DNA of 57,398 nucleotides from a virus (taxonomy: Duplodnaviria > Caudoviricetes), in IMG/VR virus record IMGVR_UViG_3300048611_000204, positions 1 to 57,398 of that record. One strand, given 5' to 3'. A program made the position numbers and the translations under genes. The notes beneath the pieces were generated by a model. The model searched no databases, was not told where the DNA came from, and saw only the letters and a list, made by a program, of their open reading frames with translations. Within the stretch, counting starts at the first letter, position 1. Each line of letters starts with the position of its first letter. Of the stretch, positions 4,137 through 52,000 are shown in pieces.

Positions 4137-4507
4137 TGGACACAAACAAGCAGTTCGATATGTGCCCGGAGCTTGACGAACAGGGTAAACTTGAAGCGCA
4201 AAAACTAATCGATCGCTTCAAGGAAAAAATGTTGGAAACCGCAGAAGACGTCCTTGGAAACCTCTACTGCGACGTTGCCGTTCATATCGAAACGGATAGC
4301 TGGACCAACTACCGGAATAAGATGATGGACGGCCTGATGGACTACGGCAATCAAGCCCTGCTAAAAAGGAAGCTTTACAAAAAGTTGAGGGAGAAACTTC
4401 TGCACGACTACGCCCCGCAGATTATCGACGATATCAACAAGGATCTGCTCGATGAAATCGCGGAGCTGAAGCGGCAAATAGAATCTCTGCAACGCAACTA
4501 CTTCTAA
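4136..4507 (+). CDS. hypothetical protein
   Basis: Start overlaps upstream stop; 123-aa ORF. Confidence 0.75.
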   Translation: MDTNKQFDMCPELDEQGKLEAQKLIDRFKEKMLETAEDVLGNLYCDVAVHIETDSWTNYRNKMMDGLMDYGNQALLKRKLYKKLREKLLHDYAPQIIDDINKDLLDEIAELKRQIESLQRNYF

Positions 4508-4611
4508 ACAGCTTAAGCCTCGATCCCTGGCTGCCTCTTCGGAGGCGGTCAGTATTGGATGCTTAACCAGCGGGCTTTGCCCGGATACCCTTATAAGGAG
4601 GATAAAATAAA

Positions 4612-5070
4612 ATGAAATTACCACCAATTTTCAAACCTTTTGAAGACTGCACACGTAAGCATGTGTCGATCGTAACTTGGAACATCAGTGCACCGGAAAA
4701 TATGCAAGAGATTATCGTCCACCTCGAAAAAGCCAGGAGCGTCTCTCTTTACGTCGGCTACTCGAAAACCACACACAATTTAGAGCTTCTGCTAAAGCTG
4801 ATGCTTCAATATCGCCGAATTGGTTGTGAGGTTTATGGCATACCAAACTGCCATGCCAAATTCTGGAAAGTCGGTCATAAACTTTGGATCGGCTCCGCGA
4901 ACTTCTGCGCGCCGTCATTGACAAATATTATGGTGGAAACCAAGAGTATGGAAGCCAATGATTTGTTCTACACAATCGTTGAACGGGCGCAGAATATCAA
5001 CGAAACAACCAAGCTAAAGCTATTGCGTCAGATTTATACCAAAGAAGAGCTTTTTCACTGCATTTTCTAG
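4612..5070 (+). CDS. phospholipase D-superfamily (HKD-like) protein
   Basis: CHAKFW...WIGSANF matches HxK...GSxN; AGGAGG RBS. Confidence 0.7.
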   Translation: MKLPPIFKPFEDCTRKHVSIVTWNISAPENMQEIIVHLEKARSVSLYVGYSKTTHNLELLLKLMLQYRRIGCEVYGIPNCHAKFWKVGHKLWIGSANFCAPSLTNIMVETKSMEANDLFYTIVERAQNINETTKLKLLRQIYTKEELFHCIF

Positions 5071-5083
5071 AGGGGGATTACCC

Positions 5084-5644
5084 ATGCTTTCGATTATTGG
5101 CAGAATCAGGAAAAGCCTGGCGGGCGGCGCGTTGCGGGAAAAGCCACCCGACAAAACAAGAGAGATCAAAACCATCAGCGATCTGGTGCAAACCCGGGAA
5201 GATGTCTTCCCGGGGTTTGGCGTCTCCGATTTACAAGAGGGTTCTTTGCGGCCCCACTACAACTTCCGCTTCAGGTCTGTTCCGCGGCGCAGCAAGCTGC
5301 CCCTTGAACCTCCAAGGACGATCGAAAACCCGCTGAAACCGGTCGGCCCGACCCTGTTCCTGAGTGTACAAGCGGTCTGGGAATATTACCGGGAAATCGA
5401 CAAGGCGGATCAGGCCCTACTTGAACTGCCCTTCACCGATCAGGGCGTCGGCAAATTCGTCGAGCCGCTGTTTGATGTCGTCGAAGATTATTACCCGCTG
5501 TTCGACTCACCCTTCAATCACCACCGCTACCTGGTCGGCAGGGAAAACATCAAATTTCTCGACTACCTGAAGAAATACAAAGGGAAGTCTCCTTTTTACA
5601 GCCTGCCGATCGTCGGCAAGGGCGCATCGATACTGGAGGACTGA
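5084..5644 (+). CDS. hypothetical protein
   Basis: 186-aa ORF with GAGGGGG RBS. Confidence 0.7.
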   Translation: MLSIIGRIRKSLAGGALREKPPDKTREIKTISDLVQTREDVFPGFGVSDLQEGSLRPHYNFRFRSVPRRSKLPLEPPRTIENPLKPVGPTLFLSVQAVWEYYREIDKADQALLELPFTDQGVGKFVEPLFDVVEDYYPLFDSPFNHHRYLVGRENIKFLDYLKKYKGKSPFYSLPIVGKGASILED

Positions 5645-5645
5645 G

Positions 5646-5897
5646 ATGCTGACACGAAAAGAATTGACCGCCATGAAACACAAACTGGAACGCGGCACGT
5701 TGCGGATGGCAGAAATTGTCAACCCCGAAGAGCTCGTTTGGCTGATCGAACAGGCCGAGAAAGAGGTTTTTGAACTCTGCCTCTGCGAGTCGCAACAGCT
5801 GTTCTTGCGGGAACACCGGCTCTACCGGTTCACCGCGGAACCCAGCTGTAAAAGCTGTCAGAAAATCAAAGCGATCTACCACGAGGAGGAAAAATGA
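5646..5897 (+). CDS. hypothetical protein
   Basis: GGAGGA RBS; tightly packed. Confidence 0.7.
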   Translation: MLTRKELTAMKHKLERGTLRMAEIVNPEELVWLIEQAEKEVFELCLCESQQLFLREHRLYRFTAEPSCKSCQKIKAIYHEEEK

Positions 5898-6127
5898 AAA
5901 GAAAATATTCTCAACCGGGAAAACCCCTGGGCAAGACCGCGGCAAAGGAAAAGCTTCTGATGCGGCACAAGTCCGGAGCGTCAAGCTCGCTGATCTTCAA
6001 AAACTACTCTGGACAAAAACCCTTTCACGGAGTGTCGCCCCCCGCGCGGGGGCGTGGATTGAAACTGCGGCGCACAGCGTCCGCAACAACGGGAGTTAGT
6101 CGCCCCCCGCGCGGGGGCGTGGATTGA
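5894..6127 (+). CDS. basic hypothetical protein whose 3' end runs into the CRISPR mini-array
   Basis: GAGGAGG RBS and ATGA overlap; stop is the TGA inside the second repeat. Confidence 0.5.
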   Translation: MKRKYSQPGKPLGKTAAKEKLLMRHKSGASSSLIFKNYSGQKPFHGVSPPARGRGLKLRRTASATTGVSRPPRGGVD

Positions 6128-6130
6128 AAC
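6034..6130 (+). CRISPR. CRISPR mini-array: 2 identical 32-nt type I-C-like repeats and one 33-nt spacer
   Basis: GTCGCCCCCCGCGCGGGGGCGTGGATTGAAAC at 6034-6065 and 6099-6130; spacer TGCGGCGCACAGCGTCCGCAACAACGGGAGTTA; hairpin plus ATTGAAAC end typical of I-C. Confidence 0.92.
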
Positions 6131-6162
6131 ATTAAATTGTTGGGCAGCGCGGAGATAAAACG

Positions 6163-6480
6163 ATGCGAAACAAAACCGATAAATGCCGTTATTTTACCGG
6201 GATACAAAACAAAACATGTGAGATCGGGATCGAATACCCAGTAAGCGATCTGCCTTGCCTCGGAGATCACCAAACTTGTGATAAGCACGAACCATTTTCG
6301 GCGGAAGAATTGGCCGCAAAGAAGGTGGCAATGGATCGACACATGGACTTGATGAGGCGCGGCTTGTCTGGTTGTTGTGAGGCGGAATTTAACACCAACC
6401 AAGTGCTGACCAGCGGGAAGTACAAAGGTCACGGCCCGCGTTTTTGTTCAAAATGTGGGAAGCTGGCATTCATGGTTTAG
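6163..6480 (+). CDS. Cys-rich hypothetical protein (cassette gene)
   Basis: GGAG RBS; bounded by GTTGGGC (6139-6145) and GCCCAAC (6483-6489). Confidence 0.75.
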   Translation: MRNKTDKCRYFTGIQNKTCEIGIEYPVSDLPCLGDHQTCDKHEPFSAEELAAKKVAMDRHMDLMRRGLSGCCEAEFNTNQVLTSGKYKGHGPRFCSKCGKLAFMV

Positions 6481-6482
6481 CA

Positions 6483-6504
6483 GCCCAACACCTTGGGTAA
6501 CTGG
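6483..6504 (-). other. attC-like half site (L'-R' part only)
   Basis: Minus strand CCAGTTACC-CAAGGT-GTTGGGC; partner arm absent. Confidence 0.55.
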
Positions 6505-6554
6505 GCGGGGAGACTGGCGAGAGGTGGCAGGCGGCTATGGAGTTTCACCGAGCC

Positions 6555-6622
6555 GATTAACGATCAAGGTAAGCGGTGAGGCGCGGCCTTTCGCGCCGAT
6601 CCGCTTGACCGCCTGGTTAGGG
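6555..6622 (-). other. integron attC-like site A
   Basis: Minus strand CCCTAAC-CAGGC-GGTCAAGCGG...CCGCTTACC-TTGATC-GTTAATC: 5/6-nt spacers, extra C in L''. Confidence 0.85.
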
Positions 6623-6710
6623 TGATTTTGCACCTCAGAAAAAAACACACATTGCGTATATAATTAGAATCAAGAAGAGGACAAAACAACCCGAACCAAG
6701 GAGAAAGACA

Positions 6711-6932
6711 ATGATCAAAGCATATGCAAGAGAAACCGGGGAACAATATCCACTGTGCAGCCTGTTGGGGGAGCCCGACCATGATGGACTCAGCACCGTA
6801 GCTCCGAAATGCCGAGAGGGGAATGTGGTTTGGGTAGCGGGCGAGCGATGCGTGGTGTATGTGTCTGACCAGGGTAAGGAATATTTGGTCCCGACCACAA
6901 TGGATGGCTCCTTTTATTTGGTCGAAGCATGA
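6711..6932 (+). CDS. hypothetical protein
   Basis: AAGGAG RBS. Confidence 0.7.
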   Translation: MIKAYARETGEQYPLCSLLGEPDHDGLSTVAPKCREGNVVWVAGERCVVYVSDQGKEYLVPTTMDGSFYLVEA

Positions 6933-7184
6933 CCGGCGAAGAGCAAGCGGAGCTTGGCGGCCAACGCTCGTATGTGGGCCATGTTGTCGGACATATCGCG
7001 TCAGATTGATTGGCATGGGCAACGGCTCACCCCGGAGGATTGGAAGATCATGTTTACCACATCCCTCAAACAACAAAGGGTAGTTCCGGGTTTGGAGGGT
7101 AGCGGCTTCGTCGTTTTGGGCGCTTCAACGTCCAAGATGAGTGTTGCGGAGTTGTCACTAAAACAAAAAAGGAGGATAAAATGA
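6933..7184 (+). pseudogene. NinB-family recombination protein fragment
   Basis: RSLAANARMWAMLSDISRQIDWHG..L...DWK..F...VVPGLEG.GFVVLGASTSKMSVAELS; both termini missing. Confidence 0.75.
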
Positions 7185-7390
7185 AGTGCGAAAACTGCGG
7201 CCATGAATGTTATAGGGACGAGGTTCACGTTGGAGTTGGGGTTGTTTCCGGCCCATGGGGGTGTCCTTGCGGATGGAGCGAGGATGATAGATACAATCTT
7301 CTGGATGGACCCAAGAAAACAGCGGAGGGTGGGACCATAGATCAGTATGGCGGGGTTATCCCGAATCGCGACAATGGAGGCATGAAATGA
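7181..7390 (+). CDS. small Cys-rich hypothetical protein
   Basis: AGGAGG RBS; CENC...CPCGW. Confidence 0.7.
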   Translation: MKCENCGHECYRDEVHVGVGVVSGPWGCPCGWSEDDRYNLLDGPKKTAEGGTIDQYGGVIPNRDNGGMK

Positions 7391-7565
7391 AAGAGCTATT
7401 TTGGAGGACGATCTTTCGAAGCACCCCTGCCAAGTGGATATGCTGCGGTTGCAATGGATGGGACACCCGGCGCGGAGCCGGCCATTGAGTACCACCGAAC
7501 CTATCGAGAAACACGGACGCCGAAGGCGTCCCTTGCAGCGCCTTGTTATGGCGCGGGAGACGGAG

Positions 7566-7802
7566 ATGGATAGGACGAAAAATCCAGACATTGAAGCTGG
7601 GTATAAATTTGCATCAGCCGCGATAGAGTCGTTGTGTAAAACGGGGATAGGCGAAGATCCCCTTCTTTTTTACGCATCCATGATTGGCACCCATTTGGGC
7701 AATATTGCGGCCCATATCGGCAAGGCTGCCACGTTGGGGATGATTGATTGTTTGCGGGAGCAAGTGGCGGCAACCCTGCCAGATAAAGGCAAGATGCAGT
7801 AG
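7566..7802 (+). CDS. hypothetical protein
   Basis: GGAG upstream of ATG 7566; ends just before attC-like site B. Confidence 0.5.
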   Translation: MDRTKNPDIEAGYKFASAAIESLCKTGIGEDPLLFYASMIGTHLGNIAAHIGKAATLGMIDCLREQVAATLPDKGKMQ

Positions 7803-7804
7803 CA

Positions 7805-7892
7805 CCATAACGGTAGATTTAAGCGGCGGCGGAGTACTGTTCGCCTGGATCGCTGCTGCATCTTCCGTCCGGCTTCAAATCGTTGGTTATGT
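7805..7892 (-). other. integron attC-like site B
   Basis: Minus strand ACATAAC...TTTGAAGC...GCTTAAA-TCTACC-GTTATGG; imperfect palindrome with one extra base in the left arm. Confidence 0.75.
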
Positions 7893-7908
7893 GCTCATTG
7901 GAGGTGAT

Positions 7909-8073
7909 ATGCTCTATACCGCTGGGAAAGATGAACATTGCCCTGACTGCAATGAGGTTGTGTGCAGGTGCGAAGAATCCCCTGACCCTATCGCTGAAAT
8001 TGACAGAACACTGTCGAAGAAAACAAAACGTCGTCGAGGGCAACGAAGAGCGTCTAATTTATTTTTCACATAA
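7909..8073 (+). CDS. small hypothetical protein (cassette gene)
   Basis: GGAGGTG RBS; stop TAA lies in the ACATAAC core. Confidence 0.65.
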   Translation: MLYTAGKDEHCPDCNEVVCRCEESPDPIAEIDRTLSKKTKRRRGQRRASNLFFT

Positions 8074-8127
8074 CGATGAAGGTAAGCGGCGGACGGTTTA
8101 CCCGTCCGCTTGACCGCTGGGTTCGTT
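8068..8127 (-). other. integron attC-like site C
   Basis: Minus strand AACGAAC-CCAGC-GGTCAAGCGG...CCGCTTACC-TTCATC-GTTATGT; same arms as site A. Confidence 0.85.
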
Positions 8128-8175
8128 TACACCAACAACCCCACGAGCCCGCGCTTTTACTGACTTGGAGGAACA

Positions 8176-8334
8176 ATGAGAGAAATTGCAATCGGTGACA
8201 TTCACGGCTGCGTTCACACGCTTCGCCAGATGATCGAGCAGATTTCCCCGGTACAAGACGACCGCCTTATTTTTCTCGGGGACTATGTAGATCGGGGTTT
8301 TTATTCTGCCCAGGTGATAGAAGAACTACTGTAA
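8176..8334 (+). pseudogene. Ser/Thr phosphatase (metallophosphoesterase) N-terminal fragment
   Basis: 52 aa with GDIHG and GDYVDRG motifs; stops before the GNHE motif. Confidence 0.8.
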
Positions 8335-8639
8335 TGAGAATTTACATTGCTGGCCCTATGTCTGGATTGCCGGAATACAACTACCCGGCGTTTAATTCTG
8401 CTGCCGAGGAACTGCGGCGACAGGGACACGAGGTCGAGAACCCGGCAGAGAACCCGGAACCACCATGTAAAAGTTGGGCAGGCTATATGCGGATGGCCGT
8501 AGCTCAACTGGTTCGGTGTGAGGTTGTGGCGTTGCTGCCTGGGTGGGAAACATCGAAAGGTGCCAGCGTGGAACACCGACTGGCGCACGATCTCGGGCTG
8601 AAAGTGCTGCCGGTTTCCGCATTAGGTATTGCGGCTTAA
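8334..8639 (+). CDS. DUF4406 (nucleoside deoxyribosyltransferase-like) protein
   Basis: IYIAGPMSGLPEYNYPAF...NPAE...LPGWETSKGA..E. Confidence 0.85.
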   Translation: MRIYIAGPMSGLPEYNYPAFNSAAEELRRQGHEVENPAENPEPPCKSWAGYMRMAVAQLVRCEVVALLPGWETSKGASVEHRLAHDLGLKVLPVSALGIAA

Positions 8640-8698
8640 CGACTGAGGTCAAGGGCTCGGCGCAGTTTGCCGAGTCCGCTTGCAGCGATTGGTTATAT
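8634..8698 (-). other. integron attC-like site D
   Basis: Minus strand ATATAAC-CAATC-GCTGCAAG...CTCGGC/GCCGAG...CTTGACC-TCAGTC-GTTAAGC. Confidence 0.75.
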
Positions 8699-8924
8699 GC
8701 CGATGTGCCAACATAACGAAGTGTCTATAAGGGAAATGTTCATCACCTCATATTGTTATGACAGGGAAGGTGGACAATGGACAGGTGGCGAAGGGATGAT
8801 GCCTGATCCGACAGGAAAACTCTATATCAAATGCCGAGAGTGCGGGCTAGATAGGAAGTATTACCGCCATCAAAAAAATATGCCCGCATGGCTGAGACGC
8901 CACTTGGAAGAACTAGGCATATAA
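8697..8924 (+). CDS. hypothetical protein (cassette gene)
   Basis: Fills the interval GTTATAT...ATATAAC; stop TAA lies in the core. Confidence 0.65.
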   Translation: MPMCQHNEVSIREMFITSYCYDREGGQWTGGEGMMPDPTGKLYIKCRECGLDRKYYRHQKNMPAWLRRHLEELGI

Positions 8925-8968
8925 CAAAAAGCACACCGGCCGCAGGTCCGGTGCTGCGGGAGTTGTCA
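8919..8968 (-). other. short or degenerate attC-like site E
   Basis: Minus strand TGACAAC-TCCC-GCAGCACCGG...CCGGTGTGC-TTTTT-GTTATAT; spacers 1 nt shorter than canonical. Confidence 0.5.
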
Positions 8969-9000
8969 AGCAATCCTTTACAACTGGGCGTGAGGAAATC

Positions 9001-9360
9001 ATGAAACATCTATTTGCAGCAGTTGCATTTTTGCTGTTCGGCTGCGGTCAGGAACCAGCGAAGAACATACCTCAACCGCAACCCGACTCAACCGTTGAAG
9101 TCAGAATGACCATCAACTACGGGAACTCGGACGCTATAGCCATGGTCTGCGGTGAGCCCGACATGGCCGTTAAGACAATACGGGGCTGTGCCTTTTCCGA
9201 TGGACTCGTTGATGGGGCGTATCGAGGCACGATCTGGCTGTTAAATGACCATCAGGGCGCCGTATCGCTCGCTGAGCGCATGACTGGCCACGAAGTAAGG
9301 CATATCCTCGGCCACACCCACGCATCGGACCTGGAGCAGGCCCTGCAGCATGGCTTTTAA
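9001..9360 (+). CDS. putative lipoprotein with HExxH motif
   Basis: Signal peptide ending LFGC lipobox; GHEVRHILGH. Confidence 0.65.
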   Translation: MKHLFAAVAFLLFGCGQEPAKNIPQPQPDSTVEVRMTINYGNSDAIAMVCGEPDMAVKTIRGCAFSDGLVDGAYRGTIWLLNDHQGAVSLAERMTGHEVRHILGHTHASDLEQALQHGF

Positions 9361-9385
9361 CCTTTTAACCAAAAAGGAGATTGAA

Positions 9386-9718
9386 ATGAAGGTTCAGGAG
9401 GTACTCGACAGCGCACGATATAACCCCATCCTCGGCTTCTGGTCGGTGTATATCGACACCCGGTGGCGGGTCTACACGGCGAGCACGCTGCACGACCTGC
9501 TGTCTATCCTGACGGCGTACTCGATCCTGCCCGAAGGAAGACCGCCGTTGCGGCTGGTAATCGTCTGTCTCTGGCGGCAGAGGGTGCCGGTAGGCGTCGC
9601 CCTAGCCGAGCTGCACGCCATGGGCTATCGCGGCACCAGCCGCTGCGAGCTGATCCGGGAATGGGTCGGGCTCGATGAAGTAAGCCACCCGTGCGCCATG
9701 AGGTTGGAGGAAGGATGA
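9386..9718 (+). CDS. hypothetical protein
   Basis: AAGGAG RBS before ATG 9386. Confidence 0.55.
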   Translation: MKVQEVLDSARYNPILGFWSVYIDTRWRVYTASTLHDLLSILTAYSILPEGRPPLRLVIVCLWRQRVPVGVALAELHAMGYRGTSRCELIREWVGLDEVSHPCAMRLEEG

Positions 9719-9948
9719 ATCGCAAGTCGTTTATCACACAGCAAATCAGCGAAGCTTTTGTCGTCGGTGACGACTATCTCGACACCAAGAAGATCTCTTC
9801 CGCCTTTATGTCTGAGGACAAGAAGAACGAGCTGCTGCTGGAGATGTCCAAGTTGAAGAAGAAGGCGGGCCGCAAGGCGCAGCCGAAGAAGGAAGTCGCC
9901 GAGTCCAAACCCGCCGAGAAAGAAGGCGAACAAGGGAGCCTGTTATGA
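9715..9948 (+). CDS. hypothetical protein
   Basis: GGAGG RBS; ATGA overlap; ends EQGSLL. Confidence 0.65.
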   Translation: MNRKSFITQQISEAFVVGDDYLDTKKISSAFMSEDKKNELLLEMSKLKKKAGRKAQPKKEVAESKPAEKEGEQGSLL

Positions 9949-10103
9949 ACGTAGTTATCGAAATCGAAAAAACCATCGAAGTCGCTGTTTATGAAGTGTC
10001 TTGCGAGTGCGGACAAATCCTTAAGTTCAAGGCGTCGGCAGACAGCGACTCCGATATTCTCGTTGAGGTCGAAGAACACATCTGCATTCAGGAGGATAAA
10101 TAA
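9945..10103 (+). CDS. small hypothetical protein
   Basis: 52 aa MNVVIEIEK...CECG...HIC; ATGA overlap; absent from ORF track because of size. Confidence 0.6.
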   Translation: MNVVIEIEKTIEVAVYEVSCECGQILKFKASADSDSDILVEVEEHICIQEDK

Positions 10104-10104
10104 T

Positions 10105-10284
10105 ATGGCTACCGACATGCAAATCACCTGGGAAAAGAAAACCTACGACATCCCGGAAGGCTTCACCGTTGCTGAGTTCGTCGACTCGCTGGCATCGAAG
10201 GACCCGAAAGCGGCGACCGCCGAGCTGATCGACGACGGCGACGGCAAATACACCTTGAAGTCCGTCTTCAAGCCGAAGGGGTAG
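10105..10284 (+). CDS. small ubiquitin-like (beta-grasp) candidate
   Basis: AGGAGG RBS; 59 aa; TVAEF..SL....P...A.L......Y.L...KG C-terminus. Confidence 0.5.
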   Translation: MATDMQITWEKKTYDIPEGFTVAEFVDSLASKDPKAATAELIDDGDGKYTLKSVFKPKG

Positions 10285-10367
10285 GTTAATCGAAGGACCG
10301 GAGACGATCGATTGTGTGGGTTCTCGTCTCCGGTTCTTCTTCCCCTGTATTTTGACAAGGAGGCTCT

Positions 10368-10565
10368 ATGGCAAACAACGTCTTCACCATGCACCTCGAC
10401 CTGAGTGGCGACGAGTTCGTCGCCTGGGAGGAAGGTGAGGTCGCCAGACGCCTGCTTTTGATCGTGGAGAAGCTGCGCCATGGTCGAAGGCACGACATTA
10501 TCCTGAACAACAACAACGAACAGATCGGCGCGTATGCGATCAGCGGAGGCTATGACGAGAAATGA
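10368..10565 (+). CDS. hypothetical protein
   Basis: AGGAGG RBS. Confidence 0.7.
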   Translation: MANNVFTMHLDLSGDEFVAWEEGEVARRLLLIVEKLRHGRRHDIILNNNNEQIGAYAISGGYDEK

Positions 10566-10768
10566 AGATAACCAGACACAAGCTGCCACGGTGCAGCTGC
10601 AAGGAAACCATCGACGGCCGGACTCTCGTATGCGGGAAGCCGGCCTTTGCCGTTCACCGGTTGGATTACGGCTTTCAGAAACTGACCATCTACGCCTGCG
10701 AAGACTGCGACCGGAAACTTTCAGCAACCCATGATGCGTACCAGCGCGCGACAGGAGCAATCAAATGA
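10562..10768 (+). CDS. small Cys-containing hypothetical protein
   Basis: ATGA overlaps on both sides. Confidence 0.6.
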   Translation: MKITRHKLPRCSCKETIDGRTLVCGKPAFAVHRLDYGFQKLTIYACEDCDRKLSATHDAYQRATGAIK

Positions 10769-11856
10769 AACAGGGAACCTTCGGAAATCTGCAGTCACTG
10801 GCCATGGAGCTTGACCGCAGAAGCAGAAACCGCAACGACTTCATCGTCGAGCCCAAAGCCGCCGAGATCTTCCATGAGGAAGGCGACAATCGCCCGCATC
10901 TGCACTTCACCCATCAGGACAGTAACTGCCATACCCTGCTCAGCAAGACGGTCATGCAGGACCTGGCCTTGCAACAGATGATGCAGCGGCTGAACATCCC
11001 GGCCGCCTACCACCGCAAGGTTTTGTCCGAGCATCCGGCCCTGCTGCGCGAGAACGTCAATTACCTGCTGCAGCGGCACACTACGCCGATGATGTTCCGC
11101 ACCCGAGACAACCAGACCGACGCGGTCCTCTCCAACGCCTACAAGCGGATCGACAACTACCCGGTAGCCTCGATGGTGCTGCCAGTCCTTCAGGAAGCCG
11201 ACGTGACTGTCGAGTCCTGCGACGTGACTGACCACAAAATGTATATTAAGGTCGTTTCTCCGCGCCTGCAGGGCGATGTCAAGGTCAACGACCCGGTTCA
11301 GCTCGGTATGGTCATCAGCAACTCGGAAGTCGGGCTCGGCTTTTTGAACGTTCAGACCATGATCTACCGGCTGGTCTGCACCAACGGCATGATCTCCGGC
11401 CGGGATCTGGGCGAAGGTATTCGCATGGCGCACCGCGGCTCCCGCCAGCCGCTCGGAGTCGCCTACCAGGAAGACACCATCCGCGCGATCGGCAACTCGA
11501 TCACCATGCAGGTTCGCGACACCGTCAGACAACTTCTCTCCCCGGAAAACTTCGCCAAACAGCTGGAAGCTTTGCGCGAAACCACCGGGCGCAAGGTCAC
11601 CGGCGATCCGACCCAGGCGGTCAAGGAACTCGGCAAGGTCGTCGGCTTCACCGAGGACGAAGGGAGCGGCATTATGCGGCACCTGATCGAGGGCGGCGAC
11701 CTGTCACAATATGGTCTGCTCAACGCCGTGACCCGCTACAGCCAGGACGACAATATCAACTACGACCGAGCAACTGAACTGGAGCGACTGGGCGGCAAGA
11801 TCCTTGAACTGAACCCGCGGCAGTGGAAGGTTATCTCCGAAGCGGAAGCAGCGTAA
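10765..11856 (+). CDS. DUF932-family protein
   Basis: AVLSNAYKRIDN...ISNSEVG.G...YRLVCTNGM...NAVT. Confidence 0.8.
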   Translation: MKQGTFGNLQSLAMELDRRSRNRNDFIVEPKAAEIFHEEGDNRPHLHFTHQDSNCHTLLSKTVMQDLALQQMMQRLNIPAAYHRKVLSEHPALLRENVNYLLQRHTTPMMFRTRDNQTDAVLSNAYKRIDNYPVASMVLPVLQEADVTVESCDVTDHKMYIKVVSPRLQGDVKVNDPVQLGMVISNSEVGLGFLNVQTMIYRLVCTNGMISGRDLGEGIRMAHRGSRQPLGVAYQEDTIRAIGNSITMQVRDTVRQLLSPENFAKQLEALRETTGRKVTGDPTQAVKELGKVVGFTEDEGSGIMRHLIEGGDLSQYGLLNAVTRYSQDDNINYDRATELERLGGKILELNPRQWKVISEAEAA

Positions 11857-11914
11857 AAATTATTCCAAGGGAAGTCATCCCGGCTGCCCTTATTTTTTTC
11901 AAAAGGAGAACATT

Positions 11915-12619
11915 GTGAAAAGATTCGCAGAATTGACCGACGCGGAAGTTATCGAGATCACCAACAACCAAGAGCGGGTTGAGCAGCTGATCGACCTGGA
12001 GTGCGCGTGGCAGGGCATCCCCTTGCTGCCGCCTCACCCCGGCAAGGAACCGGAACTGGAAGAGCTGGCCAATGACTTTCCCTACTACAAAGTCGGCAAC
12101 CTGTGTTTTGCCGATCGCAAAGAAGCCGAAGAAATCTTCGCCGCCGTCCAGAATATGCGCCTGGTCGACTCTGACTACTCGACGCATGTCGTGACCGATC
12201 TGAAGCCCGACGACTACAACTACCCCGAGCTCGAAGCCCGCGCGGGCGTGTCAAAGGAGAATTACAACGCCTATCATGAGCGCACTCAACTTGACCGTGA
12301 GCGCAAAACGGCGTGGCAGGAGCAGATGAACACCTACAACAAGATCGACAAGCAGCGCAGCGCAATTGTGCAGACCTTCTGGGATCGTTTTCACGCTATC
12401 CAGAGCGTTCGCGAACAGATCACCAATATCAACGCCGACCTTGAACGCTATCTGACTCTGGCCGAAGGAAACCAGAACGTAGCGATCAACTTCATGCTCA
12501 ATGCCCGCAAGGACGGCTCGCTTCAAGAAAGAGACGGCGCCCTGCAATATATCGACGAGAAGGGCGTCAGTCACGAAACTGGTATCGCGCGGCCCGACGA
12601 CGTGGTAGATAAATTTTAA
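11915..12619 (+). CDS. hypothetical protein
   Basis: AAGGAG RBS, GTG start, 234 aa. Confidence 0.8.
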   Translation: MKRFAELTDAEVIEITNNQERVEQLIDLECAWQGIPLLPPHPGKEPELEELANDFPYYKVGNLCFADRKEAEEIFAAVQNMRLVDSDYSTHVVTDLKPDDYNYPELEARAGVSKENYNAYHERTQLDRERKTAWQEQMNTYNKIDKQRSAIVQTFWDRFHAIQSVREQITNINADLERYLTLAEGNQNVAINFMLNARKDGSLQERDGALQYIDEKGVSHETGIARPDDVVDKF

Positions 12620-12675
12620 GACGTCATGTGATTTACCGGAGCAGCCTCGCAGGAGGCTGTTCTATTAAATTCCAT

Positions 12676-12707
12676 GTCGCTTCCCGCGCGAAAGCGTAGG
12701 TTGAAAC
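12676..12707 (+). CRISPR. solitary diverged type I-C-like repeat
   Basis: GTCGCTTCCCGCGCGAAAGCGTAGGTTGAAAC; 25/32 identical to the array repeat; two stem pairs changed compensatorily (C-G to T-A). Confidence 0.75.
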
Positions 12708-12746
12708 CACTATTCAAAGCGGGCGAGGCCCGGGAAAGGACAGACT

Positions 12747-12956
12747 ATGAGCTTTTATTGCGGACTGTGTGAAAAGAAGTGCAGTTGCCACTCGGAGGGG
12801 CCGCGCGATGAGTATTGCGCCCTCAGCGACTGCTGCAACTTCACGGCGTTCTACGACAGGGAGTTGACCAAGGAAGTCGATCCGACCGAGATCAGAGCTG
12901 AGGAAGAGTACTGCGCGGCCGAGGCGAAATACGACGAAATGAAGGAGGATCTATGA
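12747..12956 (+). CDS. small Cys-rich hypothetical protein
   Basis: AAGGA RBS. Confidence 0.65.
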   Translation: MSFYCGLCEKKCSCHSEGPRDEYCALSDCCNFTAFYDRELTKEVDPTEIRAEEEYCAAEAKYDEMKEDL

Positions 12957-13321
12957 AGAAATTTGTCTATTCGGGCAAGTGCCGCCTGTGCGAATGTGGA
13001 AAAGAGACGGGCATATATGACACCAACGGCCGGAAACTTTTCACTGGTGATATCGTCATGATCTTCACCGAAGACGGCGATGGTCTTGTTGAACAGATGG
13101 CCGATCATTTGACGGTTGTCGTCGACGAAGGTTTCAAGCCATATACCGACGGTCAGCATGTCCCTCAGGATTCTCCAGACAACCCTTATATCGTGGGCAT
13201 TAAAGACATAATCCATCCGGACAAAATCTGGCGGGTTATCAGGGTCAAGGAACAGGCCGATGTTGTTCATGGTGAGCACTGGCGGGATTTTGGCTTCAGC
13301 TACCGCGAGGAAGCGGAATAA
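12953..13321 (+). CDS. hypothetical protein with YopX-like motif
   Basis: TGIYDTNGRKLFTGDIV; AGGAGG RBS. Confidence 0.65.
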   Translation: MKKFVYSGKCRLCECGKETGIYDTNGRKLFTGDIVMIFTEDGDGLVEQMADHLTVVVDEGFKPYTDGQHVPQDSPDNPYIVGIKDIIHPDKIWRVIRVKEQADVVHGEHWRDFGFSYREEAE

Positions 13322-13335
13322 CTTGGAAGGAAGCG

Positions 13336-13369
13336 GTCGCCCCCCCCGCGCGGGGGCGTGGATTGAAAC
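13336..13369 (+). CRISPR. solitary type I-C-like repeat
   Basis: GTCGCCCCCCCCGCGCGGGGGCGTGGATTGAAAC, the array repeat with two extra C. Confidence 0.88.
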
Positions 13370-13514
13370 AATGAGTCGCACAACATCAACGCCGGCCACA
13401 CCGAGTGCCTGAAAAACGCCAAGCATCGGATCATCGCCGACTGTTTCGCGAGGGGGTATTGATGAAGAAACCGTCTTGCCCGACAATCACCAACCTTATC
13501 CACCGGAGGAAAAC

Positions 13515-13688
13515 ATGAATATAATCAGCTGTGAACGATGCGGCTCGACGGAGTTTGGAGTCGAGAAAGATTTCGACAGAGACCGGATCTACTGCAAGAA
13601 CTGCAATGCCCTTTACGGCTATATCAACGGAGCGGCAGATGCCAAGAGCGGTCCCGAAACCGAAGACGATCAGAAACGAACGATATAA
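13515..13688 (+). CDS. small Zn-ribbon protein
   Basis: GGAGGA RBS; CERC...CKNC. Confidence 0.6.
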   Translation: MNIISCERCGSTEFGVEKDFDRDRIYCKNCNALYGYINGAADAKSGPETEDDQKRTI

Positions 13689-13941
13689 GGCGTGGATCAG
13701 ACAGCTTCCGTGCCTCGGCAGATGCGCCGGGCGGGTGCCGGGGCCAAGCAATCCGCATCACCACAACCGGGAAGGACAGGGGTGTATGGCGGGGAAGACC
13801 GACGATAGCCGCTGCATCCCGCTCTGCACGCCCTGTCACCTCGAAGTTCATCGTGGTGCCCTGACCTTTCAGCGGCGCCACAACCTCGACTTCGAGGCGA
13901 TCATCAAACATCTCAACAGAATCTACGAGGAGGCCAAGTGA
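13639..13941 (+). CDS. DUF968-like HNH-fold protein
   Basis: YKAWIRQLPC..C...HH...G.MAGK.DD...IPLC..CH...H. Confidence 0.75.
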   Translation: MPRAVPKPKTIRNERYKAWIRQLPCLGRCAGRVPGPSNPHHHNREGQGCMAGKTDDSRCIPLCTPCHLEVHRGALTFQRRHNLDFEAIIKHLNRIYEEAK

Positions 13942-14405
13942 CTGACTCATTCATCCATTTCGACATGGACAAGGTTCACAGGCTGCGGGAGCACTATCTT
14001 GACGTGCTCAAATTCATCAGGGAAGACAACCCGGCGGTCAACATCAACAGCCCGAAATCGATCAAATCGTTCTGCAAGATCGCGCTCGGCCTGACCCTTG
14101 AAAACACCAGAATCAAGACTATCAACGACAAACTGGCTCTCTTCGACTCGGATTCGATGGAGTATTGCAGTCTGCTCGGGATTCTTTACGCGCTCAAGCT
14201 CAAGTTCGCGATCGCCAACTATCTCGACTGCGTTATCCGCCACCAGCGTGCCGGCGTGCTGCTGCTGCGGATCGTCGACGGCAAGCCGGTGATGTCGAAC
14301 CGGCAGCCGATCTTTTCCTCGCCGGAGATCTGGGAATGTGTGACTGAATGTTCGCCGGATGTTATCATCTACAACACCGGGGCCACCGCATCCAGGGGGG
14401 TGTGA
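13938..14405 (+). CDS. hypothetical protein
   Basis: GAGGAGG RBS, GTGA overlap. Confidence 0.7.
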   Translation: MTDSFIHFDMDKVHRLREHYLDVLKFIREDNPAVNINSPKSIKSFCKIALGLTLENTRIKTINDKLALFDSDSMEYCSLLGILYALKLKFAIANYLDCVIRHQRAGVLLLRIVDGKPVMSNRQPIFSSPEIWECVTECSPDVIIYNTGATASRGV

Positions 14406-14474
14406 CACGAAACCGGAAGCCAGGCCAACACTGGCCTATATTTCGCTCAATTTTGAGCAAGAAAGGGAGCAACT

Positions 14475-15116
14475 ATGTCGCTGTCAGCAGTAAAAGGTTC
14501 GGAAAGTGAAAGCTTTGAAAACCCGGAAGCGGGTTCCTACCCCGCACGTTGCATCCAGGTCATCGAACTGGGTACGTTTCCGAATGATCACCCGGACGCC
14601 AAACCCGGCGCCAAAAAAACCATGATGAAGATTGTCTGGGAACTTTCCGAACCGATGTCGGACGGCCGGCCGTTCACCGTCAACCAGGACTACACGGTCA
14701 GCTTGGGCAAGAATTCCAACCTCTACAAGATGCTGGTCGCCTGGCGCGGTCGCGCATTCACCGCGGAGGAACTGGAAGGCTTCAACATGCAGAATATCCT
14801 CGACAAGCCCTGCCTGATTTCGGTGGTGCTCAAGCCGAGCAAGAAGGACCCGAACAAGGTCTACGCCAACGTCGGCGGCGTCCTGCCGCTGGCCAAGGGG
14901 ATGACGGTTATCGAGCGGGTCAATGATCTGGTCTTCTTCGAGATCGAGAACATCCGCAACCAGGAGGAGTGGGACAAGGTCTGGCCGTGGGTTCAGAAGC
15001 GGATCCTGGCCTCGGATGAAGGCAAAGTCTCCGGCATGCAGGCCAACGAGCCGAAGCATGAAGCGGCGCCGGCGAACGATCCGCCGCTGATGGGCGAGGA
15101 AGAAATTCCTTTCTGA
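14475..15116 (+). CDS. single-stranded DNA-binding-like replication protein
   Basis: G.YPARC..VIELGT...YTVSLG.NSNL...L..WRG; acidic EEEIPF tail. Confidence 0.75.
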   Translation: MSLSAVKGSESESFENPEAGSYPARCIQVIELGTFPNDHPDAKPGAKKTMMKIVWELSEPMSDGRPFTVNQDYTVSLGKNSNLYKMLVAWRGRAFTAEELEGFNMQNILDKPCLISVVLKPSKKDPNKVYANVGGVLPLAKGMTVIERVNDLVFFEIENIRNQEEWDKVWPWVQKRILASDEGKVSGMQANEPKHEAAPANDPPLMGEEEIPF

Positions 15117-31700: not shown

Positions 31701-34700
31701 CCTGAGTCGCTTCGAGGTTGCCGAGGAAGACCGCCTTGTTGGAGATCTTGACGGCGACCGGGTCCCCGAGGAAGTCGGCGAAGATACCCTGCGGCATTTG
31801 ATGTTTGAGCCAGTCGAGAGTAGACAGCAGAATCCGCTCGATGCTGCTCATCACGTCGCGATGGTTGCTGGTCCCTTTGGGGAAGATCTTCTTCCAGATT
31901 CCCTGCAGCCATTTGCCGGGGGTGGCCAGGGTTTGTTTGACCTCGTTGTAGCTGCGCAGGCCGAGGCTGATCTGGTAGCGGACATCTTTATGCTGACGCT
32001 CCGTCGAGTTGAGAGCGCCGCCGACCCGCCCCTGGTTGACGAACTCGCGCCCGCCGATCATGTCGCTCACCAGTTCATAGGCCGCTAGCATGTCGGTAGA
32101 CCCGATCAGACTCTTGTTCTCGTAATTGGTGAAGGCCATGGGCATCTTGCTGATTCCGTCGAGCTTGACGATGTTCTCCAGCAGGCGGGTGGCCAGATCC
32201 CCGGCGATTTTGGTGCCGGCGAAGTCCTTGGCCAGATGCTCGTAGAAGGGGACCTGCCCCATGACCTTGGCGAATAGTTCGGCCTGCAGCTCCTCTTCGG
32301 CCCGCTCGTAGGACAGCCCCTCTTCCGTGGCGATCCGCTCTATGTGGTCTTCCCACCTGCTCCCGGACACCAGTTCTTTGATCCCGGCCGTGAACGCCTT
32401 ATGCTCGGCGGGCTTGGCCTTGTTGACCACGTGATGAAAGAGTTCGTGGCTGAAAACCCGATGGACCGATAATTCCTTGTTGGTGTTGATGACAATCTTG
32501 GCCCGGCCGTCGGACGCTTCGCCGATGTAGCGGGTCCGGTAGTAGGGGTCGCTGACGATGACCAGGTCGGCGTCGAAGGCCTTACTGACCAGCTCGTAAA
32601 AGCCGCGGGCGACCTTGTTGCGGATGCGACCGACCGCCTCAACCTCCAGTTCAGCCTCGAAGCCCTGCGGGTTGTCGTTGCGCTCGAACAGATCGGCGGA
32701 CGCCGGCTTGAGCCCGGCTTCATCCTTGACCGTGGCGAAGCTGCGCTCCTCGTCGATGGCAGCCTGGGTCCCCCTGCCGCTCATCAGCATCTCCAACTCG
32801 CGCAAAGCCCGGAAGCGAATTTTCTGCATCCCGTCGAGACGGGCGTAGTTCTCGCCAGCCTGCCGCCGGTCCGCCGCTTTCGGGTTGGTGGGGTATATTT
32901 TTTGGTACAGCCCCTTCTCGTGGTCGGACAGTTCGTGGACGACCAGCCCCCGAACGTCGCCGTCGAGAGCCTTGCGGTATTTCTCCTGATGCGCGGCGCG
33001 CTCGACCGCTTCGATCCGCCTGGCGATGGTGCTGACCAATCTGCCGAGGTCCGATCCGTTCTGCACGTAAGCGACGTACATGTCGGCGGACGTCCAGCCG
33101 CTGCCCTGGTATTTCTCGGCCAGGTCCTCGAAGGTCTTGGCCGAGACCGCATTCTTCTGCCGGTAGTGGGCCAGGGAAAGGGCGGTCGAGATTTTCAGCA
33201 GCTCGGAGTTCAGTTCGTCCTTGATGAATTTGCGATCCTTCGCGGGAATCCGCTTGTCGAAGGCGTTGGTGTGCAGCTTCCACAGACGCCTGCGGTATTG
33301 CTTGAAGTCCTCACCTCGCTGGTTGGCAACCTGTTCTATGGCCCCGGCGCGTCCGGCCGCCTGCAGCATCTCAAGGCTGTTCTCCTGACGGTCGAAACCT
33401 TCGATCATGTCCAGCTTGCCGACGTCCAGCACCTGCAGAGCGGGTCCATGTTTCTTGCGCAGCCCGGCCACCTCGCCGTTTTCCATCTCGGCCAGCCGCG
33501 GGCTGGTGTAGAAGCTTTCGTATTCCTTCTTCATCGTCGGATGATTCTGTTTGGTGTTGATCACGAACGGATCAGCTTTCAGTTGGGCCAGACGCTCAGC
33601 CGCCTTGTCCACCGCAACCAGCTCGGAACGCAGCAGCTGCTTTTTGGTCACCGGGTCGGTCGTCGAGTAGAGGATCTTCTGTTTGCCCCTGTCCTGCCAG
33701 AGTCTGCCGGTGGGATAGGTCACCCTGACCAGCGCCGCGTAGTTGCGCCGGGTGCCGGTCCGCGCGCTGACGTTGTCGACTTCCGTGACGCCCGGCTCCT
33801 CGCTGCGGATGTCGATGTTGTCGATGTCGTAGGGGCGGATGTCTTCCGTAAGATAGTGGGTGTTGACCGGGTAAAGGGCGATCAAAGTCTCGCTGATGAG
33901 CGCCTTCTGTTTAGCTTGGGGCAGAGCCCTGAACTCGTCGGTGGCGCCGTTGCGGACGAAGGACATGCGGTGCGCTATCTCGTCGACGTCCAACACGCGG
34001 CTGCTCATGTTCTTCCCCAAAAAGGAAAGGTCATTGAGAACCCTGAGAATGGAAGGGATGTTTTCCATACCCAGACGAATGTCGTTGTCTTTCGCGCTTC
34101 GCTTCTCGACGAAGGCCCGGTAGCTGGCTTCGTTTTGCGCCTGTTGTCTGCGCTCGGCCTCGGCCCCTTCGGCCCTCTTCTGCGCGATGTCCCGCCCGCT
34201 TTTGGTCCGGTTGAGAATCTGTTCCTTGGTCCAACTTTCGGTCTTGTCTTTCCGGCCAGTACCGGCGACTTTCTTTACTTCCGGTGGGCGCAGGACCCGT
34301 TCTTCGTAATCCGGGTCGCTGACCGGGTCGTAGTCTTCGTCGACGGCGACGTTCTTGTTCTCCAGCGGGTAGAAAACTTCTTCGTCGATAATCGCATCGA
34401 GCAGCTTCGGCGTGATCTCCGCGTCGATCTCTTCCTTGATCTTCTGGCGAATGACCTCGTCGCTCGCGTTCCGGTTATTCTGAATGATGTCGGTAATCCG
34501 CTTGGGCCTGGTCAGCAGGATCGACAGCGCCTTCTTGTTGACTCGCGCTTGGCCAGGGTTATCTTTCTTAAATCGCGTCAGTAGCTTGACCACTTCTGGG
34601 GCATTGGCCGCAAGATCTTGTTCGGCGGGGGTTGAGGCTCCGCGCTGCAAAACCTTCGCCGCCTGCTCCGCGGAGCTTTCCTGACTGAAATCTTCGACCT

Positions 34701-47734: not shown

Positions 47735-48522
47735 AAAAACGCCCTCATCGGCGCGTTGGTGGTGAGTTTCTTGTCCAGTTCCTCTTCGAGATGTTTGATC
47801 TCGTCCAGACGATCGAGGAAGCGCTTGCCGTGGATCTCCGCCTTCTTCTTGTCGAAGCTCTCGGCATCCTGCTTCAGGTACATCAGTTCGAGCACACCGT
47901 CCATGAAGGCGTCGTGGTAGACGCTTCTGAACTCGGGCACGTCCGTGTCAGCGGCGAGGTCGGCCAGCGGCAGGCGCCGAATCCGCAGCAGCAAGATATC
48001 CGCTGCCGTCGAGCGGTAGTTGAGTGCGAGCTTGCCGGTATTGAGGTCGGTGGCATACTCGGTCGGATCGGCGACGCGCTGCTCCCACATGACGTCCTGT
48101 GCCCACTTCTGCGAGGAAACCTTGGTGAGGGTCCAGGGCCGGACTGCCCACTTGACCTCGTCTATCTGGAGAACCGAGGCGTGTAGGGCGAGCAGGTAGG
48201 GGGTGACGTCGAGCTGATAAAGCGGAGAACTTGCGCTGTTCGCCCAGAGGTGATCGAGGGTGCCGGACGTCAGGGTGGTGTAGTCGACCGGGTCAACGGC
48301 GATCTGGCAGACAGCGGGGGTGGAGGCGTCGCGGATACAGAGACATTCCTTGGCGATTTTGCGGTAGACGCGATTGACGTAGGCGAGCAAGTCGCTTGAC
48401 GACCAGAAGAGATCATCGTCAAGTCCCACTTCGTCATCGTCAAGTCCCACTTCGTCATCGTCAAGTCCCACTTCGTCATCGGCCAGAGAGCGGATTTCGG
48501 TGATGATCTCCAGTAGCGTCAT
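47731..48522 (-). CDS. head-tail adaptor-like protein
   Basis: MTL.E....R...D...WS...L..Y.N; YLKQDAE.FD. Confidence 0.6.
   Translation of the reverse strand: MTLLEIITEIRSLADDEVGLDDDEVGLDDDEVGLDDDLFWSSSDLLAYVNRVYRKIAKECLCIRDASTPAVCQIAVDPVDYTTLTSGTLDHLWANSASSPLYQLDVTPYLLALHASVLQIDEVKWAVRPWTLTKVSSQKWAQDVMWEQRVADPTEYATDLNTGKLALNYRSTAADILLLRIRRLPLADLAADTDVPEFRSVYHDAFMDGVLELMYLKQDAESFDKKKAEIHGKRFLDRLDEIKHLEEELDKKLTTNAPMRAFL
48413..48481. repeat. 21-bp tandem repeat, 3.3 copies, in frame
   Basis: TCATCGTCAAGTCCCACTTCG x3 + TCATCG; encodes (DEVGLDD)3. Confidence 0.95.
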
Positions 48523-51579: not shown

Positions 51580-51628
51580 GATCTTCATCCTTTCGGGGGC
51601 CGGCTGTACGGTTTCCCCTGGTTGGAGT

Positions 51629-51678
51629 AAAAAAAAGGGCCGCAGGCAAAGGGAAAATCCCTTTACACTACGGCCCCT
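51629..51678 (-). terminator. terminator-like hairpin before scaffold gene
   Basis: Minus strand GGGCCG...CGGCCC followed by T8. Confidence 0.55.
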
Positions 51679-51722
51679 TGGTTCAGGTTAGCCAAATATT
51701 TTGTTGTCGTTTAGCTCTTGAT

Positions 51723-51755
51723 GTTTCAATCCACGCCCCCGCTCGGGGAGGCGAC
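51723..51755 (-). CRISPR. solitary type I-C-like repeat
   Basis: Minus strand GTCGCCTCCCCGAGCGGGGGCGTGGATTGAAAC. Confidence 0.85.
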
Positions 51756-51757
51756 GC

Positions 51758-52000
51758 TTAGATTTTGATGAACTCTTCGATTTCGGCCTGGTAGCCGATC
51801 CTGCAGTTGCGCGTCATGGAGACGTTGCCTTTGAACAGCGGCCGCTCCCGTTTGATGATGTCGAGAAGATCCTTGACGGTCCCGGCGCCGACGGTGAAAA
51901 CCCGCTTGGCCGACTTGACCTTCCCTGCGTCACAATGGAAAACGACGGTCCCGCCGTCCTCCAACGTCTTGTTGATCTCAGTGGCGTCGCCCTTCAGCAT
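51758..52000 (-). CDS. hypothetical protein
   Basis: GGAG RBS. Confidence 0.65.
   Translation of the reverse strand: MLKGDATEINKTLEDGGTVVFHCDAGKVKSAKRVFTVGAGTVKDLLDIIKRERPLFKGNVSMTRNCRIGYQAEIEEFIKI

Follow-up and report, generated by a model that had tools for sequence, protein, structure and literature searches.

The closest described counterparts of the elements reported here are the solitary CRISPR repeats of host type that are carried by viruses and known as Racr. One of these, RacrIC1, lies 11 nt past a gene with which it is cotranscribed, and it acts as an inhibitor of type I-C interference (Camara-Wilpert et al. 2023, PMC10651486). A second group comprises the viral mini-arrays, which serve inter-virus conflict (PMC11656645, PMC7099407), and a recombinational route to the spacers of phage mini-arrays has been proposed (PMC7099407). 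Viral solitary repeats, viral mini-arrays, and a suggested origin by recombination with the host array are already known; in the papers accessible to us, neither gene truncations exact to the base nor a PAM footprint were described at the flanks of solitary repeats or mini-arrays. The junctions and the PAM footprint described below may be new evidence on how such elements arise.

The phage studied here carries both kinds of element. Its solitary repeats share with Racr, as represented by RacrIC1 in the available part of the account (PMC10651486), the character of a solitary host-type repeat in a virus; here two of them lie 2 and 14 nt past stop codons, one of the two with a terminator behind it. 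The present case differs from that account in combining three solitary repeats with a mini-array, in that no recognized acr gene was seen next to them, and in being known from sequence alone. Junction scars, found here at two loci, are not discussed in the same part of the Racr account (PMC10651486). The likeness to the viral mini-arrays, as described in the available text of PMC11656645 and PMC7099407, lies in two host-identical repeats enclosing one spacer, with no cas gene found and a perfect match in viruses of the same gene pool. The differences are that the targets (34-38 kb) have no more than short segments in common with this 57-kb phage, and that the array stands in place of a gene's 3' end, its left flank consisting of a PAM plus a protospacer. 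The best explanation of the whole is probably that this phage has repeatedly captured repeats from a host type I-C array by recombination between spacers and protospacers, and that the captured pieces now serve as a mini-array against competing phages and as Racr-like decoys.

The window, that is, the whole stretch of DNA analyzed (57,398 nucleotides), is a linear IMG/VR virus record from an uncultivated phage described as coming from soil or sediment, and CheckV places the completeness of the record at 83%. Genes up to ~ 24 kb lie on the plus strand and include small early genes, DUF932, a DUF968/HNH protein, and weak matches to YopX and Lar/zinc-ribbon proteins, while past ~ 24 kb the genes lie on the minus strand and include a connector/portal-like protein of 696 amino acids. 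Megablast of positions 4500-15000 against cultured phages gave no match, and nothing similar was found among cultured phages. Relatives were sought with five queries against viral contigs and one against metagenome contigs, and no usable relative was obtained; the sole match in the viral contigs (L146) covered 14 residues and was judged spurious.

Five copies of one repeat were found in the window, two of them in the mini-array (6034-6130) and three solitary, at 12676, 13336, and, on the minus strand, 51755. The 32-nt repeat is exact at 6034 and at 6099, with 33 nt between. The minus-strand copy (51755-51723) had been missed in the initial annotation and surfaced by BLAST against other viral loci, and a search across the window with the 14-nt 3' part of the repeat, allowing up to three mismatches, recovered the five copies and no sixth. 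Its sequence is that of the classical type I-C (Dvulg) repeat. Exact copies stand in arrays on more than 120 genome stretches across many phyla and in the array on the plasmid of Nitratidesulfovibrio vulgaris Hildenborough, and Cas8c/Csd1 was present in five of five repeat-bearing genomes vs none of 14 control genomes (in G003 on the array's own contig). Rfam returned nothing at gathering scores, with only sub-threshold matches to CRISPR-DR9, and none of the cultured phages searched carries the repeat.

CRISPR repeats fold into a stem-loop followed by a single-stranded 3' tail, which gives rise to the 5' handle of the crRNA. The predicted 7-bp stem and the 3' handle are kept in the copies at 6034, 13336, and 51755, with differences confined to the loop; the energy-minimum fold of the 12676 copy differs from the 7-bp stem. 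All four repeat loci are intergenic and are co-oriented with their flanking genes. The orientation of solitary repeats in other viruses was also scored with a longest-ORF heuristic (10 of 13 co-oriented, p 0.09); this comparison was dropped, the heuristic being wrong on the window's own loci.

The mini-array consists of repeat 1 (6034-6065, plus strand), identical to the type I-C (Dvulg) repeat, a 33-nt spacer (6066-6098), and repeat 2 (6099-6130). It interrupts an open reading frame, ORF5894, whose start overlaps the stop codon of ORF 5646-5897 (ATGA) and whose 5' part (5894-6033, plus strand) is cut at repeat 1 after 47 codons, the last of which ends on base 6034. The uninterrupted form of this gene is represented by P0005, a 77-amino acid JGI protein encoded on four contigs of at most 2606 nt. 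Residues 1-47 of P0005 are identical to ORF5894 and the two diverge at nucleotide 6034/6035, codon 48 onward lying in repeat 1. After residue 47, P0005 continues with PQKKMNF... and a hydrophobic membrane-helix tail, and this tail is encoded nowhere in the window. The same point of divergence was observed in DNA from other sequencing runs: contigs of runs X2 and X4 match positions 5500-6034 and then continue with 51 and 57 unlike letters, respectively, and an X3 contig likewise leaves the window at 6034, with 193 unlike letters (a minus-strand match, by our reading). These data bear out the proposal of the initial annotation that the mini-array cuts into ORF5894. To the right of the mini-array follows ORF 6163-6480, for which this contig is the sole known source. 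A joint from 6065 to 12673, considered as a deletion in a phage, was rejected and is a host array contig.

The solitary repeat at 13336-13369 (plus strand, 34 nt) starts 14 nt past the stop codon of ORF 12953-13321. It is a CRISPR repeat as first designated, and it differs from the 32-nt form at 6034 and 6099 by two additional C within the loop. It is followed directly by the 3' remnant of a gene for a 66-amino acid protein, without its first 37 codons (13370-13462, plus strand; 30 codons and a stop). No ATG, GTG, or TTG is present in the frame at 13370-13459. A search of the 31 residues of the remnant against 1.84 billion representative proteins identified P0003 (66 amino acids), which matches at residues 38-65 with 20 of 28 identities (71%; library-wide E 1.8e-4; tblastn 6e-10). 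The tblastn alignment opens at 13370, with the codon that immediately follows the repeat, and no coding sequence for the N-terminal 37 residues of P0003 exists anywhere in the window. P0003 is a singleton on a 1253-nt ENA contig, and the identification of the remnant rests on this one homologue. Three further protein matches to the remnant were set aside as low-complexity repeats. The start-less frame that had been noticed after this repeat is accordingly a real gene remnant. The wider claim, that the repeats sit at broken junctions, was confirmed at two of the four loci (ORF5894/P0005 and 13336/P0003).

The 13336 repeat is present wherever contigs of runs X3, X4, and X5 cover the locus, these being ~ 98% identical relatives from other samples. 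The X3 contig (1099 nt) spans 12771-13868 with 23 substitutions and no gap, and the X4 contig carries the canonical 32-nt form of the repeat at this locus. Immediately downstream, an 18-codon ORF (13462-13518) with a good Shine-Dalgarno sequence (GAGGGGG) overlaps both the stop codon of the remnant (TGATG) and the start of the following gene (ATGA), so translational coupling seems to have outlived the truncation.

The repeat at 12676-12707 (plus strand) is diverged (78% identical) and lies in a 127-nt gap between ORF 11915-12619 and ORF 12747-12956. It carries two changes in the handle and one mismatch in the stem; the two 'compensatory' pairs of this stem have a chance of ~ 30% under transition bias by our calculation and are not strong evidence. 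The copy is present without gaps in the X3 and X4 contigs, and its exact form had no copies in 241 million metagenome records. The repeat at 51723-51755 (minus strand, 33 nt) lies 2 nt past the stop codon of ORF 51758-52000 (minus strand). It is followed, 45 nt further on, by a long hairpin with U8 that resembles an intrinsic terminator (51629-51677, minus strand), which a simple terminator scan had missed. The fold of the minus strand at 51625-51760 has a free energy of -53.6 kcal/mol (z -4.4), and none of 200 shuffled sequences folded as well.

A mechanism has to account for four observations: where the repeats lie, the truncation of two genes, the geometry of the PAM, and its recurrence in other viral contigs. 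Probably, the host had gained neighboring spacers from this phage, and homologous recombination then took place between the 33-37-nt host spacers and the matching protospacers of the phage. The phage DNA between two protospacers would be swapped for the array content lying between the two spacers, which would be either one repeat, giving a solitary repeat, or a repeat-spacer-repeat unit, giving a mini-array. Such a swap would truncate the resident gene and leave the PAM of the upstream protospacer in place, and several separate capture events would have occurred in the history of the phage. Both Varble et al. 2019 and Watson et al. 2018, as cited in PMC8616872 and PMC7099407, describe a comparable exchange through 30-40 bp of identity between spacer and target; the difference, as far as these citing texts relate it, is that they concern transduction of a CRISPR locus, while here the phage would keep one repeat or a repeat-spacer-repeat unit and the footprint is a natural one.

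In type I-C systems, the PAM is TTC, located 5' on the spacer-sense strand, with TTT second best, and spacers are 33-37 nt long (Rao et al., bioRxiv 137067). Arrays fetched for the present analysis yielded 1152 spacers of mainly similar length (33 nt, 223 spacers; 34 nt, 496; 35 nt, 277; 36 nt, 86; 37 nt, 23; 38 nt, 17). The capture model predicts that a native protospacer of one spacer length, with a PAM before it, should lie to the left of the first repeat, and that the PAM should be lost on the right side of the repeat. Repeat 1 of the mini-array is indeed preceded by TTC (5996-5998, plus strand) and a flank of protospacer length (5999-6033, 35 nt), which would be the crossover segment. The 13336 repeat is preceded by TTC and 38 nt, a length that is rare among the harvested spacers (17 of 1152). 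No TTC was found at 32-38 nt to the left of the 12676 and 51755 repeats. Since the TTC background in the window amounts to 9.8% over distances of 33-37 nt and to 13.4% over 32-38 nt, the two of four loci with TTC at 32-38 nt are not significant (p ~ 0.09) and are weak evidence if taken alone. On the right side of the 13336 repeat, the residue of P0003 that precedes the break is Phe (TTY), at the place where the model puts the lost PAM, as judged at the protein level from one 71%-identical homologue.

The same prediction was then examined in other viruses. Viral contigs were scanned for the 14-nt end of the repeat, which gave at least 119 loci with at least 196 motif matches, at least 109 of which passed a hairpin filter. 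Six loci were added, and a cluster was kept if it comprised one to three repeats and lay no closer than 150 nt to a locus end; 45 loci among the matches listed then formed the test set, the window being excluded. TTC was present 33-37 nt upstream of the first repeat in 15 of these 45 loci, where ~ 3.6 would be expected (among the matches listed; binomial P ~ 1e-5 to 1e-6). Among the same listed matches, eleven other 5-nt bins between 3 and 62 nt contained one to seven loci each, with a mean of 3.6 over 17 control bins, and TTC ranked first of the 64 trinucleotides at 33-37 nt, the runner-up reaching seven loci. The implied flank lengths of 33-37 nt agree with the lengths of the harvested spacers, and all 15 flanks among these listed matches differ from each other in sequence. 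A decayed repeat upstream was sought at the 15 listed loci and none was detected (0 of 15 above the local 95th percentile), and the right flanks in the test set gave no GAA signal. The leaders of host arrays, a small control, showed the footprint in none of eight cases. We know of no functional reason for a native PAM plus protospacer to abut a repeat; such an arrangement is the expected product of a crossover between spacer and protospacer, and the footprint fits capture.

Another virus of this set, L011, carries on its minus strand both a solitary repeat (1071) and a mini-array (1868-1967) of the same repeat, with TTC 35 nt upstream of each; the solitary copy is one base off the array repeats. 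Isolate plasmids were tried as a further test set and abandoned: three solitary matches were found, none of them viral, one being a mini-array and one lying beside cas2.

The donor array itself was sought through its spacers. The flanks of the window's repeats gave no match among the 1152 harvested spacers, a small sample and hence weak evidence, so that the comparison with spacer databases that had been suggested beforehand came out negative within that sample. Likewise, the 40-nt flanks of every repeat had no match in the two target phages of the mini-array described below or in 752 kb of host array loci. The best spacer match found, to a spacer of a Magnetospirillum MAG, extends over 20 nt at 32729-32748 and covers this spacer only partly, and it was not used as a clue to the host. 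The other suggested comparison, with relatives lacking the repeats, showed sequence that runs on differently at the left junction of the mini-array (P0005 and the X2-X4 contigs) and pointed, by protein homology, to a longer gene at 13336 (P0003). Taken together, the two base-exact truncations, the TTC followed by 35 nt, the Phe before the break in P0003, and the footprint at 15 of 45 loci (among the matches listed) support the idea, raised when the locus was first annotated, that the repeats derive from recombination with a host array with deletion of phage DNA.

All footprint loci are on metagenome-derived viral contigs, and an assembler could make the same join by jumping from phage to host array and back to phage via the identity of spacer and protospacer. 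If this had happened, the mini-array and part of the 45-locus footprint (among the matches listed) would be unreal. The repeats of the mini-array are identical to those of hosts, close relatives lack the array at 6034, repeat-bearing hosts are abundant in the same kind of sample (repeat-bin depth up to 2814), and it is an odd coincidence that P0005 and the window's ORF are both 77 amino acids long. Such an artifact would, however, not explain the 12676 and 51755 copies, which differ from the host repeat, the former having no exact match in metagenome contigs, nor the 13336 junction, of which colinear, diverged versions turn up in separate assemblies from other samples. The X3 contig runs for 193 nt past 6034 without rejoining the window, which speaks against a bubble of equal length, and at least three footprint loci among the matches listed (L011 at 1071, L152, and L220) have noncanonical repeats. 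An assembly artifact is judged improbable as a general account, and it is unlikely as the source of the three solitary repeats of the window, while it stands as a rival account of the mini-array and of part of the footprint.

An arrival of ordinary Racr and mini-array genes through phage-to-phage module exchange or through illegitimate recombination, with truncations and PAM as coincidence, is also improbable, to our minds. The early region is certainly mosaic, with a 327-bp segment at 97% identity that is common to otherwise unrelated phages and many contig breaks in relatives, and the PAM statistic is weak within the window. Exchange of this kind nevertheless leaves unexplained the 15 of 45 loci (among the matches listed) with TTC at exactly spacer length, and also the two gene breaks that fall base-exactly at repeat ends.

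Capture from a host array, the preferred reading, further allows the events to be ordered. The mini-array looks recent: it has two identical repeats and a flank that is unchanged in protein sequence, and it is missing from relatives. The 13336 and 51755 repeats would be older, given the changes in their loops and, for 13336, its presence also in the X3, X4, and X5 contigs, and the 12676 repeat would be the oldest, given its identity of 78%. This suggests several captures in one lineage, one recent, two intermediate, and one old. About one-third of viral type I-C loci, among the matches listed, keep the footprint of PAM plus protospacer. Whether this amounts to a general birth route of Racr-type repeats and viral mini-arrays is a matter on which we are evenly divided: CRISPR immunity would then seed its own inhibitors, as neighboring spacers make the array a template, and the array might even bridge unrelated phages and produce mosaic junctions such as that at 6034-6130. 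Should the footprint survive read-level checks, it would provide a simple sequence test for the origin of these anti-defense RNAs and make captures datable, as with the recent, the two intermediate, and the old one of this single lineage, and it would mean that spacer acquisition exposes the host to a specific counter-move.

The 33-nt spacer of the mini-array has 33/33 matches in two phages that co-occur with the window phage, G001 (34 kb) and G002 (38 kb, with terminal repeats). The protospacers are intergenic and preceded by TTT, a PAM that gave 95-99.5% interference in a Legionella type I-C system (bioRxiv 137067). The flank of this protospacer was also seen in run X4. Neither target phage carries the repeat, and what they share with the window is a stretch of 327 bp at 97% and short intergenic elements. 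The shared stretch (7153-7479) contains a zinc-ribbon-like ORF of 69 amino acids (7181-7390) and has high depth in all four runs. One of the intergenic elements, at 8921-9006, bears a hairpin and recurs several times in G001 and G002, on either strand; it may have a role in regulation or recombination common to these phages.

The mini-array fits the viral type in having one spacer between host-type repeats and a target with a working PAM, and in that neither Cas8c nor Cas1, the two Cas proteins sought, is present in the window (83% complete record). Its crRNA would turn host Cascade-Cas3 on competing phages of the G001/G002 type, the repeats presumably being transcribed along with the surrounding phage genes. 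Host-like solitary repeats outside any array, as in Racr, are present at 12676, 13336, and 51755 (minus strand), and these, above all the 51755 repeat with its own terminator, may act as Racr-like decoys for Cas5c/Cas7c. A combination of Racr and mini-array functions is the best reading of present use, with transcription and activity inferred. The recombination scars had been put forward as an alternative to the Racr model, a claim that found no support in that form: phages that co-occur offer perfect targets for the spacer, and relatives at ~ 98% identity have retained the 13336 repeat. Moreover, an origin as a scar is not an alternative to Racr, since origin and present function are separate questions.

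The same recombinational origin could have left solitary repeats that are functionless now, only their history being real, which we regard as unlikely. Scans for sigma-70 promoters and terminators gave signals not above those of shuffled sequences, no RNA run was listed that holds the stretch 5500-14500, and the 12676 copy has the two handle changes and the stem mismatch noted above, while the remnant gene beside the 13336 repeat demonstrates that junk can persist in this phage. Against neutrality, three loci share an unchanged handle and stem base, a dedicated terminator follows the 51755 repeat, and all four loci are co-oriented with transcription, though the chance of the latter is 1 in 8. 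In addition, a type I-C solitary repeat 11 nt past a gene inhibited interference in the published case (PMC10651486, in the part available).

The repeats might also be regarded as attachment sites for integration of the phage into a host CRISPR array, an idea that has been published for viral repeats (PMC8616872, PMC7099407, and bioRxiv 2020.10.09.333658, as far as their available text goes). This is very unlikely here, given that a search of the window (83% complete record) revealed no tyrosine or serine recombinase and that four separate loci, one of them in a structural operon, are unlike a single attP.

Finally, the initial annotation had linked the repeats physically to integron attC sites. 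Two real copies of an imperfect palindrome with conserved flanks do exist, at 6559 and 8072. These elements (6557-6620 and 8070-8125) are intergenic, with conserved ends AACGATSAAGGTAAGCGG ... CCGCTTGACCGC and differing hairpins in the middle, and they resemble attC in that the palindrome is imperfect and varies in the middle while its ends are conserved. They differ from attC in that core sites are not enriched, no integrase was found, and the similarity to the flank of the 13336 repeat is not significant. The 'attC-like half arm' described before this repeat gave a local alignment score against the two palindrome copies that was reached by 9.5% of random 40-mers from the window (p ~ 0.09), and the 'lone cassette end' GTTGGGC belongs to a motif, GTTRRRY, that occurs at chance level (74 observed vs 82.5 expected). 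The proposed link thus dissolves on each count, and a joining of the repeats to attC sites deserves practically no credence. Contigs of relatives break exactly at the edges of the palindromic elements (loose ends at 6558, 6634, 8071, 8077, and 8113), and the element has more the look of a sequence marking module boundaries than of an attC site.

Several other elements were observed in the window. At 9948-10109, relatives from runs X2, X3, and X4 lack 160 nt and have nine other letters in place; the skipped piece holds an ORF of 52 amino acids (9945-10103) and has the inverted repeat I2 on both sides. Three related elements of ~ 36 nt, at 102-137, 345-380, and 10292-10339, form one family, the copy at 10292 being a hairpin with 16-nt arms. 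Within the minus-strand late region, a 21-nt tandem repeat is present in 3.5 copies (48413-48486). At the extreme end of the contig (57258-57374), three direct repeats of ~ 33 nt are spaced by 40-44 nt, and these may be iterons, or may mark a packaging or origin region.
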